IMG/VR virus record: IMGVR_UViG_2695420564_000011
Reading direction: 5' to 3' (one strand)
DNA: 7,332 nt
From: a virus
Lineage: Duplodnaviria; Heunggongvirae; Uroviricota; Caudoviricetes
How positions within the stretch are numbered: the stretch's first letter is position 1; each line of letters starts with the position of its first letter. This document shows positions 1 through 7,332 of the stretch, in pieces. A model generated the notes under the pieces. It saw nothing but the letters and a program-made list of their open reading frames with translations, made no database searches and was not told where the DNA came from. The translations under genes were made by a program, and so were the position numbers.

Positions 1-648
1 ATGAAAATCGCCGATCTCGCTGAAGCAATAGGAGTGGATGCGGCGAATATCTCACGCCTGGAAACAGGTAAGCAGAAACAATTCACTGAACAAGCCCTGA
101 GTAATATTGCCAGGAGCTTAGGTGTTGATATTGCAGATCTCTTTACCTCAGACTTCAAAAGTAATACTGTATGTAAAAACAGTGCTTGTGAGGATGTTGC
201 GCAGGTGAAGGATGTATTCCGTATTGAAATGCTGGATGTCAGTGCCAGTGCGGGAAATGGCCTTATCCAGGGCGGTGATGTCATTGATGTGATTCATGCC
301 ATTGAATACAGAACTGATAATGCTGTATCGATGTTTGGCGGACGGCCAGCCAATCACATTAAAGTTATCAACGTTCGTGGGGACAGTATGTGTCCAACCA
401 TTGAGCCAGGAGATCTCATCTTCGTTGATGTCAGTATCAATCAGTTTGATGGAGATGGTATCTATGTATTTGGTTTTGATGATAAAATTTATGTCAAACG
501 ACTGCAAATGATACCTGACAAACTACTGGTGATTTCTGATAACCAGATTTACCGTGAATGGGGAATTACCAGCGAAAATGAACACCGGTTTATGGTCTTT
601 GGAAAGGTCTTAATCAGCCAGTCACAAACCCTTAAGCGACACAATTAA
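1..648 (+). CDS. CI-like prophage repressor (HTH_XRE DNA-binding domain + S24 LexA-type autopeptidase domain); probably 5'-truncated by the window edge
   Basis: HTH recognition segment KIADLAEAIGVDAANISRLETGK sits at the extreme N-terminus with no room for helix 1, so the gene likely starts upstream of the window. C-terminal domain has a candidate Ala-Gly cleavage site (SASAGNG), a GDSM serine motif (VRGDSMCPTIEPGDLIFVD) and a VKRL lysine motif (IYVKRLQM), matching the LexA/lambda CI Ser-Lys dyad. Stop TAA at 646-648. Confidence 0.85.
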   Translation: MKIADLAEAIGVDAANISRLETGKQKQFTEQALSNIARSLGVDIADLFTSDFKSNTVCKNSACEDVAQVKDVFRIEMLDVSASAGNGLIQGGDVIDVIHAIEYRTDNAVSMFGGRPANHIKVINVRGDSMCPTIEPGDLIFVDVSINQFDGDGIYVFGFDDKIYVKRLQMIPDKLLVISDNQIYREWGITSENEHRFMVFGKVLISQSQTLKRHN

Positions 649-668
649 CCCTTACCTCCTCATCAATT

Positions 669-690
669 AGCCACCCGAAGGTGGCTTTTC
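669..690 (+). terminator. Intrinsic terminator downstream of the repressor gene
   Basis: GCCACC (670-675) pairs with GGTGGC (680-685) around a CGAA loop, followed by TTTTC. Lies 22 nt after the repressor stop codon. Confidence 0.6.
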
Positions 691-703
691 ATTACCCATT
701 AAA

Positions 704-742
704 TTGCATATCTCGCAACAAAAACACTTGCATAATGCGCAA
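704..742. promoter_or_regulatory. Two related 15-bp dyad-symmetric operator-like sites (TTGCATATCTCGCAA at 704-718; TTGCATAATGCGCAA at 728-742)
   Basis: Both sites have the form TTGC-N7-GCAA with inverted outer arms. Centres are 24 bp apart, similar to lambdoid operator spacing. They sit between the repressor gene and the downstream operon, and the second overlaps a candidate -35. Confidence 0.5.
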
Positions 743-756
743 CTTCATTTTATCTT
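728..756 (+). promoter_or_regulatory. Candidate sigma70 promoter (pL-like) driving the rightward accessory operon
   Basis: -35 TTGCAT (728-733), 17-bp spacer, -10 TATCTT (751-756). The -35 overlaps operator-like site 2. No experimental support; the -10 matches consensus at 4 of 6 positions. Confidence 0.35.
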
Positions 757-1168
757 TCTTTCCAGACAAACAAACAAGGTACTAACAAAATTTGGTTGTA
801 ACACGGCGTATGGCACATGCGTCGTTAGCGGTCTGGGGACGTTAAAGGGGACAATCCACTCCTTGCTCGGGCAAACAAACCAGGTAGCCGGAATGTGCAA
901 GTCAATGATGATGCTGATAAGACGCCTAACCAGCGTCGCGATTCGGTTTGACGCCTGGGAAGAGACCAGGGTGCAACGATGAGGGCATTTATGGAACCGC
1001 GACAAAGTGTGGTGCCGTAACTGGCTAAGTGCTCTCAGCGTTGTGGTAATCCGCGAAATGGCGCGGCGGTAAGTATGGCGGGGTTATTCCTTCCCCGTTG
1101 AGGACACCGGGTTGTCAGGTTGACCATACGCTTAAGTGACAAGCCCACCACAACAGCCACTGCTTTGG

Positions 1169-1213
1169 CGGTACCAGTTTGTACACTTGCTTCCGGCTGG
1201 TACCGCTCTTTTT
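1169..1213 (+). terminator. Terminator-like hairpin inside the leader (CGGTACCAG ... CTGGTACCG followed by CTCTTTTT)
   Basis: 9-bp perfect stem (1169-1177 / 1197-1205) with a 19-nt loop, followed by a T-rich tract at 1206-1213. The large loop is atypical for a strong intrinsic terminator, so this may be an attenuator or pause site. Confidence 0.4.
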
Positions 1214-1302
1214 ACAAAACAGAGAAGAGCATCACCGGACGACGGGCTCATAACCCAATCCACCCGGGCGGCTGCCACCGCAGGTGCTCTTCTCTGTTTT
1301 GT
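1214..1302. repeat. 18-bp perfect inverted repeat (ACAAAACAGAGAAGAGCA at 1214-1231; reverse complement TGCTCTTCTCTGTTTTGT at 1285-1302) flanking a 53-bp spacer
   Basis: Read directly from the sequence; arms are exact reverse complements. Located about 50 nt upstream of the yfdP-like start codon. Would form a long RNA hairpin or a DNA cruciform/binding site. Confidence 0.9.
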
Positions 1303-1350
1303 GGAGAAACCAACCGACCTTGCAGGGTCGATATGATGAGGAGCAGCAAA

Positions 1351-1713
1351 ATGGCTAGCGAACGCAGTACTGATGTGCAGGCATTTATCGGGGAGCTGGA
1401 CGGCGGCGTATTTGAAACCAAAATCGGCGCTGTTCTCAGTGAAGTCGCTTCAGGTGTGATGAACACGAAAACCAAAGGGAAGGTCTCGCTCAACCTGGAA
1501 ATCGAACCGTTTGATGAGAACCGTGTGAAAATAAAACACAAACTCTCATATGTTCGTCCGACTAACCGCGGGAAAATTTCCGAAGAAGACACCACCGAAA
1601 CGCCGATGTATGTCAATCGCGGTGGTCGCCTGACTATTCTGCAGGAAGACCAAGGACAATTACTGACTCTTGCCGGTGAACCTGACGGAAAACTCCGCGC
1701 AGCAGGTCATTAA
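1351..1713 (+). CDS. yfdP: YfdP-like prophage protein, 120 aa, function unknown
   Basis: ATG at 1351 is preceded by GAGGA (1338-1342) at 8-nt spacing. Upstream in-frame sequence is non-protein-like and overlaps the leader hairpins. Alternative start at 1333 (MMRSSKM...). Length of 120 aa matches my recollection of E. coli CPS-53 YfdP; not verified by search. Confidence 0.7.
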   Translation: MASERSTDVQAFIGELDGGVFETKIGAVLSEVASGVMNTKTKGKVSLNLEIEPFDENRVKIKHKLSYVRPTNRGKISEEDTTETPMYVNRGGRLTILQEDQGQLLTLAGEPDGKLRAAGH

Positions 1714-1778: not shown

Positions 1779-2603
1779 ATGTCTCAGAACTTAGACGCAA
1801 CCGCAATTAATCAAATCCATGCCCTTATTTCTGCTCAGGGTGTTAATGAAATTATTAGTAAGATTGGTGCCGATGCTGTGGCATTGCCTGAGAATTTCCG
1901 CATTCATGATCTGGAAAAATTTAATTTAAATCGCTTCCGTTTCCGTGGTGCGCTTTCCACTGCCAGCATCGATGACTTTACCCGTTATTCTAAAGATCTT
2001 GCAGATGAAGGCACCCGCTGCTTTATCGATGCCGATAATATGCGTGCCGTCAGTGTGCTTAACCTGGGTACTATTGATGAACCAGGTCACGCAGATAACA
2101 CCGCCACTCTCAAACTGAAAAAGACAGCACCGTTCTCTGCTCTGTTGTCTGTTAATGGCGAGCGTAACTCCCAAAAGTCACTGGCAGAATGGATTGAAGA
2201 CTGGGCCGACTACCTTGTGGGCTTTGATGCTAATGGTGACGCCATTCAGGCAACCAAAGCGGCTGCGGCGATCCGTAAAATCACAATTGAAGCGAACCAG
2301 ACCGCTGATTTTGAAGACAATGACTTCAGCGGCAAACGCTCCCTGATGGAGTCTGTCGAAGCGAAGACCAAAGACATTATGCCAGTGGCATTTGAATTTA
2401 AATGCGTTCCGTTTGAAGGCCTGAAAGAACGTCCGTTTAAATTACGCCTCAGCATTATCACTGGCGATCGTCCTGTACTGGTTCTGCGCATTATTCAGCT
2501 GGAAGCGGTGCAGGAAGAAATGGCTAACGAATTTCGTGATCTGCTTGTTGAGAAATTTAAAGACAGCAAAGTAGAAACCTTTATTGGTACTTTCACCGCC
2601 TGA
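1779..2603 (+). CDS. yfdQ: YfdQ-like prophage protein (DUF2303 family), 274 aa
   Basis: ATG at 1779 with TGAGGA RBS 8 nt upstream. N-terminus [12 protein letters not shown] and the 274-aa length match my recollection of CPS-53 YfdQ; not verified. Confidence 0.8.
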
Positions 2604-5117: not shown

Positions 5118-5236
5118 ATGCAGACAATCATCTATCAGATAACCCCCAGCAAATGGTGTACGGAGAGAGTCCTTATTGCATCAACAGGGCTAAAGCCCGG
5201 CACCATCGAGCGGGCCAGAAGAAAGTCATGGATGCA
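5118..5236 (+). CDS. N-terminal fragment (39 codons) of an excisionase/AlpA-like DNA-binding protein, truncated at the junction at 5237
   Basis: ATG at 5118 with GAGG RBS (5109-5112). Sequence MQTIIYQITPSKWCTERVLIASTGLKPGTIERARRKSWM resembles the W...T..ARR pattern of phage Xis-like winged-helix proteins. The reading frame then runs into antisense groEL sequence, which is not meaningful. Confidence 0.35.
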
Positions 5237-5237
5237 N

Positions 5238-6399
<1,162 letters not shown>

Positions 6400-6407
6400 N
6401 NGNNNNN

Positions 6408-6437
6408 ATAGCCGGTACCGGAAATGGTAATTTTCAT
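6408..6437 (-). pseudogene. ugd: First 10 codons of ugd (UDP-glucose 6-dehydrogenase; MKITISGTGY), joined through an N-block to the groEL fragment
   Basis: Reverse complement of 6408-6437 is ATGAAAATTACCATTTCCGGTACCGGCTAT, matching the Ugd N-terminus MKITISGTGYVGLSNG as I recall it. Expected position immediately downstream of gnd. Confidence 0.6.
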
Positions 6438-6510
6438 TTCATGCTCTCAGAATTAACTTAGCTGTGAATCATGATGTTTTAGCATCCTGATAGAAGTTAA
6501 AATTTTTAGC

Positions 6511-6538
6511 GCTACGCTGATCCCAGCATCAGCGTAGC
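6511..6538. repeat. 11-bp perfect inverted repeat (GCTACGCTGAT / ATCAGCGTAGC) with 6-nt loop in the gnd-ugd intergenic region
   Basis: Read directly from sequence. No T-run follows on either strand, so it is not a canonical terminator; it could be a regulator binding site or RNA stem in the ugd promoter/leader region. Confidence 0.8.
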
Positions 6539-6624
6539 AACAAAATCAGACTTTACTTATAAGTATAGCTGATATTTATTAAGTTAATATTAAGCAATGA
6601 AATTTAATCTATAGGATTATTGGC

Positions 6625-6655
6625 AAAAAAAACCCGGCAATATATGCCGGGCCTC
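6625..6655 (-). terminator. Intrinsic terminator of gnd
   Basis: On the minus strand: GAGG-CCCGGCA-TATAT-TGCCGGG followed by eight T (plus-strand A-run 6625-6632). Lies about 24 nt downstream of the gnd stop codon. Confidence 0.85.
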
Positions 6656-6678
6656 AATTTATTGCTGATTAAATTAGA

Positions 6679-7332
6679 TTAATCCAGCCATTCAGTATGG
6701 AACACACCTTCTTTATCAATGCGCTTATAAGTATGCGCACCGAAATAGTCACGCTGAGCCTGGATCAGGTTCGCAGGCAGCACCGCGGCACGGTAGCTAT
6801 CGTAATAAGCAACCGCCGCAGAGAAGGTTGGAACTGGGATACCGTTTTGCACTGCATAAGCGACGACATCACGCAGTGCCTGCTGGTAGTCATCGGCGAT
6901 TTTCTTGAAATACGGAGCTAACAGCAGGTTAGCGATTTTTGGATTTTCGGCATAGGCATCGGTGATTTTCTGCAGGAACTGCGCACGGATGATGCAGCCA
7001 GCACGGAAAATCTTCGCGATTTCACCGTAGTTCAGATCCCAGTTGTATTCTTCAGACGCAGCACGCAGCTGAGAGAAGCCCTGAGCGTAAGAAACGATTT
7101 TTCCCAGATACAGCGCACGACGAACTTTCTCGATAAACTCAGCCTTATCGCCTGCTGGCTGCGCTTGCGGACCAGAAAGTACTTTAGATGCGGCAACACG
7201 CTGATCTTTCAGAGAAGAGATATAACGTGCAAACACAGACTCGGTAATCAGCGACAGCGGTTCGCCGAGATCCAGCGCACTCTGACTGGTCCATTTACCG
7301 GTGCCTTTATTAGCCGCTTCATCCAGGATCAC
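6679..7332 (-). CDS. gnd: 6-phosphogluconate dehydrogenase (decarboxylating), C-terminal 217 aa; 5' part lies beyond the window
   Basis: Translation ...[51 protein letters not shown] ... [24 protein letters not shown] matches the enterobacterial Gnd C-terminal domain. Stop TAA at 6679-6681 on the minus strand; ORF open to the window edge. Confidence 0.95.

Follow-up and report, generated by a model that had tools for sequence, protein, structure and literature searches.

The stretch of DNA analysed here (the window) comprises 7,332 nucleotides (nt) of the Caudoviricetes virus record IMGVR_UViG_2695420564_000011, and positions are counted from its first letter. Its first 5.2 kb hold the early-left (PL-like) region of an SfV/mEp460/cdtI/ST64B-type temperate phage. 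A prophage repressor gene is followed by a terminator, operator-like repeats and a leader of about 600 nt that runs in the same transcription direction as the repressor gene, holds no credible open reading frame and ends before yfdP. This order, with a non-coding leader of the same length, is shared by mEp460, SfV, SfII, ST64B, phiNP, LLS, Eeyore and e14 (Table 1). Within the leader lies a hairpin, HP1, with a run of T residues (a U-run in the RNA) behind it, and our analysis makes it quite probable that together they form a Rho-independent terminator inside a PL-like leader, an evolutionary relative of the terminator hairpin of the small RNA DicF and of DicF's STnc100-like and RprA-like cousins.

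Table 1. Features of the early-left region in the window
Feature	Position	Strand	Basis
cI-like (S24/LexA-type) prophage repressor gene	1-648	+	Open reading frame list; homologous phages annotate it as cI or as a prophage repressor
Intrinsic terminator of the repressor transcript, AGCCACC-CGAA-GGTGGCT then TTTTC	669-692	+	Terminator scan; SfV and SfII annotated with a terminator here
Two operator-like direct repeats, TTGCAT-N-CGCAAC	704-719, 728-743	+	Direct-repeat search
Putative PL-like promoter, TTGCAT, 17-nt spacer, TATCTT	728-733, 751-756	+	Synteny with the SfV/e14 promoter
Long imperfect hairpin, 5' arm GCAACGATGAGGGCAT, 3' arm AGTGCTCTCAGCGTTG	971-1044	+	RNAfold of 940-1350 and of the Qin region
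Domain A, structured, closed by GTTGTGGT/ACCACAAC	1040-1154	+	Inverted repeat; alignments
Short single-stranded linker AGCCACTGCTTT with UUU end	1155-1166	+	Alignment; occupies the place of the DicF 5' seed
HP1 hairpin, homologous to the DicF terminator hairpin	1167-1207	+	Repeat search; RNAfold; alignment
Terminator U-run, TCTTTTT	1207-1213	+	Run of 5-7 T in nearly all relatives
HP2, conserved three-way-junction hairpin, closing stem of about 25 base pairs	1214-1302	+	Repeat search; RNAfold; covariation
Conserved GGAGAA directly 3' of HP2	1303-1308	+	Predicted pairing with the U-run in read-through RNA
HP3, short GC-rich hairpin without a T-run	1313-1332	+	Compensatory variants: CGACC/GGTCG in the window, GGCGG/CCGCC elsewhere
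Shine-Dalgarno sequence GAGGAG	1338-1343	+	Precedes yfdP
yfdP, first gene of the early-left operon	1351-1713	+	Open reading frame list; annotation in relatives
yfdQ	1779-2603		Open reading frame list
yfdR-like HD protein and further small genes	After yfdQ		

The two arms of HP1 (1168-1177, GCGGTACCAG; 1197-1206, CTGGTACCGC) are 100% complementary over 10 base pairs (bp), seven of them G-C, and enclose a 19-nt loop, UUUGUACACUUGCUUCCGG. With G.U pairs the stem reaches 13 pairs in RNAfold, and the energy of the best hairpin is -20.8 kcal/mol. The hairpin with a T-run described in the original prediction is therefore real, its perfect stem being 10 bp long and not the 9 bp claimed. Two hallmarks of an intrinsic terminator are present, a GC-rich stem with a U-run immediately behind it and a structure that is kept by compensatory change while the U-run is retained. 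The G.U pairs of HP1 and of the following hairpin, HP2, are consistent with the plus strand only; a function on the minus strand was rejected because HP1 has no T-run there and its G.U pairs would turn into A.C mismatches.

Related loci were collected with the anchor GACGGGCTCATWMCCCAATCCA, an invariant sequence within HP2, which gave 120 viral contigs and 31 species-representative genome contigs. A hairpin with a run of 5-7 T lies at this exact place in nearly every related locus (more than 100), and the stems differ. The relatives have 25 distinct outer stems, every one of them paired, examples being GGCGGTACCAG/CTGGTACCGCC, GGCGGCATC/GATGCCGC, GGCGGCGCCAG/CTGGCGCCGC, GTCGGCGTC/GACGCCGAC, GGCGGTTATCC/GGATAACCGCC, CTGGCGGCCCGG/CCGGTAACCGCCAG and TGCCCATC/GGTGGGCA, and their hairpin energies lie between -13 and -33 kcal/mol. 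Of the 31 species-level genome loci, 27 have the element, and these come from at least 15 genera of Enterobacterales (Escherichia, Shigella, Citrobacter, Enterobacter, Klebsiella, Kosakonia, Phytobacter, Atlantibacter, Leclercia, Buttiauxella, Mixta, Erwinia, Pseudescherichia, Pseudocitrobacter and others). A hairpin and T-run conserved in position, with differing stems that compensate, is far more than chance would give and is, at the sequence level, the signature of a functional intrinsic terminator. The reading of the site as a terminator or attenuator, one of the two roles offered in the original prediction, is thus supported by a conserved and covarying structure as well as by its homology to the DicF terminator.

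The other role was that of a boxA, and the heptamer CGCTCTT at 1204-1210, which runs from the last stem positions into the U-run, does match the boxA core exactly. The corresponding explanation is a switch in which NusB/NusE, alone or together with a phage factor, would be loaded at CGCTCTTTTTAC, so that the element toggles between termination and processive antitermination. The heptamer sits in a PL leader, where lambda has its nutL; the mEp collection has been characterised as Nus-dependent (PMC11893012), and with no annotated N an unconventional mechanism is conceivable (PMC12315714). However, CGCTCTT occurs once in the window against 1.19 occurrences expected, with 139 of 200 shuffled sequences carrying at least one, and the 12-nt rrn boxA GCTCTTTAACAA fails to match here even when three mismatches are allowed (there are four). 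Conservation across homologs had been named as a check, and here the motif failed: it is found in 41 of 116 distinct contexts, all of them from a single lineage of closely related E. coli phages, and in one of the 27 species-level genome loci with the element, whereas the hairpin and T-run are retained in the rest. At the same junction other lineages have CGTCCTT, CGCCCTT, CGCATTT, CGCACTT, CGACCTT, GCACCTT or CAGCCTT, and the natural CGCCCTT and CGTCCTT variants differ solely in stem base-pairing.

Furthermore, the CGC of the heptamer is base-paired inside the -20 kcal/mol stem of HP1, and no boxB-like element (a 5-bp stem with a purine-rich pentaloop) was found downstream, as the original prediction had itself remarked; what follows instead is a 25-bp stem. 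The annotation of mEp460 contains no N homolog and none has been reported for LLS (PMC12315714), and SfV orf33 was rejected as an N-like protein for want of an arginine-rich motif. The adjacent conserved module, HP2, has no second, nutR/putR-like copy in the complete genomes of mEp460, LLS and ST64B, where matches on the minus strand reflect hairpin symmetry. For the proposed conditional switch we found no evidence of one formed by alternative pairing. Loading of NusB/NusE at this site is, in our judgement, very improbable. Judged by its pairing, the heptamer appears to be the stem end (...CCGC) and a G.U-pairing U (C in relatives) meeting a C and the U-run, with no separate function, and its resemblance to boxA would be a lineage-specific coincidence.

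Homology then connects HP1, read as a terminator, with the dicF locus of Qin. Window positions 1040-1146 align with Qin sequence directly 5' of dicF (L134, 2369-2476) with 105 of 108 positions identical, and this stretch is the 5' part of the 190-nt DicF precursor. HP1 and the DicF hairpin are identical in 37 of 51 aligned columns and have in common UUUGGCGGUA(C/U)CAGUUU...CCGC(U/C)CUUUUU. The location is also that of a DicF RNA, namely a repressor-controlled early-left operon of a lambdoid prophage with a homologous upstream precursor. In Qin, the promoter dicBp is PL-like and repressed by DicA, the 3' end of the 53-nt DicF arises by Rho-independent termination, and the 72-nt form arises when RNase III cuts read-through RNA 19 nt further; the 5' ends are made by RNase III for the 190-nt species and by RNase E for the 53-nt species, DicF binds Hfq, and transcripts running past dicF were hard to detect (PMC5069750; bioRxiv 10.1101/2023.04.14.536235). 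When the Qin region was folded with RNAfold, the position 190 nt 5' of the DicF 3' end fell in the 3' arm of a long hairpin, and the position 19 nt past the 53-nt DicF 3' end fell in the 5' arm of another. The hairpin at 971-1044 of the window may, by inference from its position, be the counterpart of the first of these, which RNase III cuts at the 5' end of the 190-nt precursor (bioRxiv 10.1101/2023.04.14.536235); its 3' arm recurs as the motif GTGCTCT-N-GTTGTGG in 62 of 117 related contexts.

The DicF family model (RF00039, gathering score 48 bits) gave 76.7 bits on Qin as a control and also matched HP1 of sister loci, with 29.6 bits for L100, 29.1 for L087, 28.5 for e14, 28.2 for L129, 20.5 for phiNP and 15.7 for SfV; all of these sister-locus scores, the last two included, are below the gathering score. 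The homology to the Qin dicF locus suggests that HP1 is the terminator of a DicF-type RNA locus whose seed is different or missing. Neither the DicF 5' seed UUUCUGGUGACG nor the loop UUUUACUCCG, with which xylR and ftsZ are targeted, is present in the window.

The loops of HP1 are rich in pyrimidines (UUUCCC, UUUCUCUCC, CUUCC). Certain lineages, such as L028 with UUUCUCUCC, have a loop with perfect complementarity to the Shine-Dalgarno region of ftsZ, GGAGAGAAA, and the same loop type is also complementary to the conserved GGAGAA after HP2, so that an interaction in cis or in trans is possible. The RNAduplex energies of HP1 variants with the ftsZ leader were non-discriminating, DicF itself reaching z = -0.55.

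STnc100 is a prophage-borne gammaproteobacterial small RNA of about 206 nt, and RprA is a core-genome small RNA with its own promoter. Both have likenesses in this family of leaders, where domain A, the structured region upstream of HP1, is of Qin type, STnc100 type or tRNA-like type depending on the lineage. The STnc100 model (RF02076, gathering score 47 bits) covers domain A plus HP1 of SfV and SfII over its full length with 39.5 bits, its terminator falling on HP1, and scores 29.2 bits in e14 and 35.1 bits in ST64B, all below gathering. The 3' module of the RprA model (RF00034, gathering score 70 bits), consisting of AUUGCUGUGUGUAGUCUU and a terminator, matches the LLS/Eeyore version with about 41 bits. 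The tRNA model of Rfam (gathering score 29 bits) matches counterparts of window 1040-1154 in L107 (1077-1203, 43.9 bits), L087 (1800-1925, 40.0 bits), L100 (4364-4488, 29.5 bits) and L129 (3220-3344, 28.7 bits). These four domains have an acceptor stem, a D arm and a T arm plus an insertion of about 64-70 nt, and each insertion holds a ...UCAUAACC... loop with an anticodon-like CAU. ARAGORN found no tRNA genes in the window and 30 loci, and the window's own Qin-type domain A did not match the tRNA model. Rfam searches of the whole window and of sub-regions found nothing in the leader and no STnc100 match in the window; weak matches to hairpin ribozyme, mir-2772, CRISPR-DR66 and Vax2os1 were dismissed as noise.

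The linker AUUGCUGUGUGUAGUCUU stands before the terminator in L007/L008 (1108-1206) and in SfV, e14, ST64B, phiNP and Klebsiella loci, and the loci that carry it may be prophage-borne RprA mimics or sponges. In the dicF-dicB interval of Qin (L134, 2565-2705), a hairpin domain with the closing stem ttttgtgatgcggtg/caccgcatcacaaaa resembles domain A of SfV and e14 and matches STnc100 positions 21-154 with 38.8 bits, which indicates that the same structured modules occur in differing orders across prophages. The prophage small RNAs AgvB/AsxR and PasA-D were considered and set aside as unrelated, being located in the late (Q/PR') region.

A structured domain directly followed by a terminator could also be read as a ligand- or tRNA-responsive attenuator, with domain A as the sensor and HP1 as the expression platform of a riboswitch-like device. 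The tRNA-model matches of domain A counterparts would suit such a reading, and so would the overlap at GTTG between the 3' arm of the 971-1044 hairpin and the 5' strand of domain A, where alternative pairings are possible. We found, however, no upstream segment that covaries with either arm of HP1, and in L044 the domain A sequence GGCGGTAAG is retained despite the HP1 stem being GTCGGCGTC/GACGCCGAC. Many phages show a mosaic boundary at window position 1165-1166, and HP1 recombines independently of domain A, which argues against a sensor coupled to this terminator and fits a modular exchange of domain, seed and terminator. The homologous Qin region is, moreover, known as a processing precursor and not as a sensor (bioRxiv 10.1101/2023.04.14.536235). 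A riboswitch-like device is consequently one of the least likely explanations.

HP2 begins one base past the U-run. The original prediction had rightly placed another hairpin directly after the T-run, giving it 18 bp, and the arms found here (1214-1238 and 1278-1302) are 25 nt each and 88% complementary. In the alignment of HP2, 97% of the cells are paired and 10 pairs change on both sides, a result reached by none of 500 shuffles, and controls slid along the alignment gave 41-56% paired. A covariance model built for HP2 (R1) scores 114 bits, and HP2 is spread over Enterobacterales prophages with one copy per phage genome. HP2 is absent from Rfam, and R1 did not match the hairpin downstream of dicF in Qin. 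Its position and its long stem make HP2 a probable RNase III site for read-through transcripts, by analogy with the 72-nt DicF.

The invariant core of HP2, CGGGCTCATAACCC (1243-1256; CGGGCUCAUAACCC as RNA), exactly matches the anticodon stem-loop of E. coli initiator tRNA-fMet, with three G-C pairs (a GGG/CCC stem) and the loop CUCAUAA. The tRNA-fMet sequence was verified against all 5426 E. coli genomes, and a rough estimate puts the number of 14-nt matches expected between the E. coli tRNAs and a leader of 590 nt at about 0.01. Perhaps HP1 gates HP2, and the early-left leader of phages without N encodes initiator-tRNA mimics, that is, HP2 and the tRNA-like CAU-loop domains of the sister loci; this is a speculative proposal that we hold to be improbable. 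Such mimics might decoy or sense factors that recognise this arm, candidates being anticodon nucleases of the VapC/MvpT type (Shigella, Salmonella), the 30S P site with IF3, or MetRS. The VapC toxins of Shigella and Salmonella cut tRNA-fMet in exactly this arm (PMC4705866). If the proposal were true, the RNA would serve counter-defence or translation control and would be made only through readthrough of the terminator. HP2 may be such a decoy, a ligand of the ribosome or of IF3, or just a scaffold derived from a tRNA.

An explanation that gives HP1 no part in making a small RNA is that of an insulator or attenuator combined with put-like antitermination, where HP1 is a mere barrier and domain A (or HP2, for later terminators) modifies RNA polymerase. 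The authors of the LLS genome paper proposed a put-like mechanism because N is absent (PMC12315714), and the leader does fold better than shuffled sequence (z = -5.2 and -6.9), with HP2 strongly conserved and placed 5' of all early-left genes. On the other hand, the region has no sequence similarity to the HK022 putL (PL-nun) region, and the single HP2 per genome leaves the right operon without a putR-like copy. The domain 5' of HP1 also differs by lineage and is ill-suited to a single polymerase-binding fold, while HP2 lies downstream of HP1 and therefore cannot suppress it. We regard put-like antitermination as unlikely for these reasons.

For HP1 as a DicF-type terminator, the most likely function, reasoning by analogy with Qin, would be 3'-end formation of a leader-derived small RNA together with attenuation of the operon. 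Transcription would start at a repressor-controlled promoter near 728-756, and a fraction of the transcripts would end at about 1211-1214 to give a non-coding leader RNA, whose predicted 3' end combines a U-rich stretch with a GC hairpin and a poly-U tail, as Hfq-binding modules typically do. Cleavage of this RNA by RNase III in the hairpin at 971-1044 would leave a species of about 175 nt, made up of domain A and HP1, as the counterpart of the 190-nt DicF precursor. Read-through polymerases would transcribe HP2, where a cut by RNase III would separate the small RNA from the yfdP mRNA in the manner of the 72-nt DicF 3' end. HP1 would thus have two effects, forming an RNA 3' end and attenuating yfdP along with the genes that follow it. 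What has been shown here is that the structure exists, is conserved and covaries, and that the locus is homologous to dicF, whereas the efficiency of termination, the processing sites and their cleavage, Hfq binding and any role in trans are what we would infer from Qin.

Several points weigh against this account. The HP1 loop, with 19 nt in the window and 5-45 nt in relatives, exceeds the 3-8 nt typical of canonical terminators, so the efficiency of HP1 could be low; our consensus terminator scan missed HP1 because it permits only loops of 3-8 nt. The window lacks 19 nt that are present in Qin, including TTTCTGGTGACG and the DicF 5' seed. A search of the window's own HP1 and domain A with Rfam (286 nt) gave no match to DicF, STnc100 or RprA at E<=10, and by covariance-model criteria the window belongs to none of these three families. 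The analogy of HP2 to an RNase III site draws on position and stem length only, and we found no transcript data for this phage type. Given the missing seed and the point mutations in the loop among close relatives, a trans-acting function is doubtful for the variant in the window, and attenuation and 3'-end formation may be its main function.

Upstream of the leader, the operators and the promoter assigned to 704-756 are putative. SfV and e14 have a promoter, TTGACA-N17-ATAATG, directly past the cI terminator, and a strict promoter scan called no promoter at 704-756 of the window. Neither inspection by eye nor the scan revealed an internal promoter between HP1 and yfdP. The leader carries, near its 5' end, a C/A-rich direct repeat, CAAACAAAC(A/C)AGGTA, at 767-781 and 872-886, and SfV and e14 carry GAAACAACAAACAGG at the matching relative place; the repeat might serve as a signal for Rho utilisation or for processing.

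In the relatives mEp460, SfII, SfV, ST64B, phiNP, LLS and Eeyore, the annotation continues from yfdP and yfdQ to xis and int, and in e14 the element is directly 5' of xisE-intE. Portions of the leader are found in 4785 of 5426 complete E. coli genomes. A possible coding reading of the open reading frame at 1120-1713, which is in frame with yfdP, was rejected because the frame varies across lineages, the indels are not multiples of three and the substitutions in stems compensate. The annotated e14 coding sequence ymfH (L130, 2363-2674) and the upstream extension of yfdP in the window both span domain A, HP1, HP2 and HP3. Substitutions there follow an RNA-like pattern (changes compensate, the frame is not conserved between lineages and indel lengths are not divisible by three), which makes it probable that ymfH is no protein gene.

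Directly past the yfdQ stop codon, a GC-rich hairpin without a long T-run (AAATGCCCCTGCGGGGGCATTT, 2609-2640) may be a weak terminator or an RNA-stability element within the early-left operon. From about 5230 to 7332 the window switches abruptly from phage genes to a fragment of groEL (minus strand, 5226-6437) and then to the 3' part of gnd (minus strand, 6679-7332), with runs of N at 5237 and at about 6400-6407. This part looks like a chimeric or draft assembly join and not like a natural prophage boundary.

These analyses remove a tempting false lead, that of a boxA/Nus switch in a phage without N. The seemingly empty leader 5' of yfdP would be a modular small-RNA locus related to dicF, STnc100 and RprA, whose seeds, structured domains and terminators appear to be shuffled among phages. 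Most E. coli genomes carry the leader, and so do many Enterobacterales prophages, among them Stx2c phages, serotype-converting phages of the SfV type, ST64B and e14. The DicF paradigm, in which termination is combined with processing by RNase III as well as by RNase E in a PL-like operon, may thereby extend to active temperate phages, and annotated open reading frames such as ymfH of e14 may be RNA and not protein. HP2 is singled out as a conserved, unannotated RNA with a mimic of the initiator-tRNA anticodon arm.

Among known systems, the closest likeness is to dicBF. Both loci belong to a PL-like early-left operon of a lambdoid prophage, downstream of a repressor, and in both Qin and the window a long hairpin begins right past the U-run. 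The differences are that the HP1 loop of the window is longer, of another sequence and without the ACUCC anti-ftsZ sequence, that HP2 is not homologous to the downstream hairpin of Qin, and that the genes are yfdP-yfdQ-yfdR instead of dicB. With STnc100 the locus shares a multi-branch domain closed by a helix of the UGGUG/CACCA type, a short linker and an intrinsic terminator, and the counterparts of domain A and HP1 in SfV, SfII and e14 align to the full model with 29-39.5 bits, whereas domain A of the window is of Qin type. The likeness to RprA is found in the linker AUUGCUGUGUGUAGUCUU of LLS, Eeyore, SfV and ST64B, identical to the pre-terminator segment of RprA, and in the RprA-like terminator of LLS and Eeyore; the window differs in carrying AGCCACUGCUUU at the linker position.

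Like the RNase III sites of the lambda N leader and of the 72-nt DicF, HP2 is a long double-stranded stem between a regulatory RNA element and the first ribosome-binding site of the early-left operon, although it has no sequence homology to them and its cleavage is a prediction. HK022 put is comparable in that lambdoid phages without N have a structured RNA in the PL leader, but neither its sequence nor its architecture matches, since put consists of two stems of about 70 nt and occurs as putL and putR, whereas phages of the window's type have a single copy with a terminator 5' of the most conserved element. The likeness to lambda nut and rrn boxA is confined to the heptamer CGCTCTT and its position in a PL leader, the heptamer of the window being unconserved, partly paired and without a boxB or boxC partner or an N protein.

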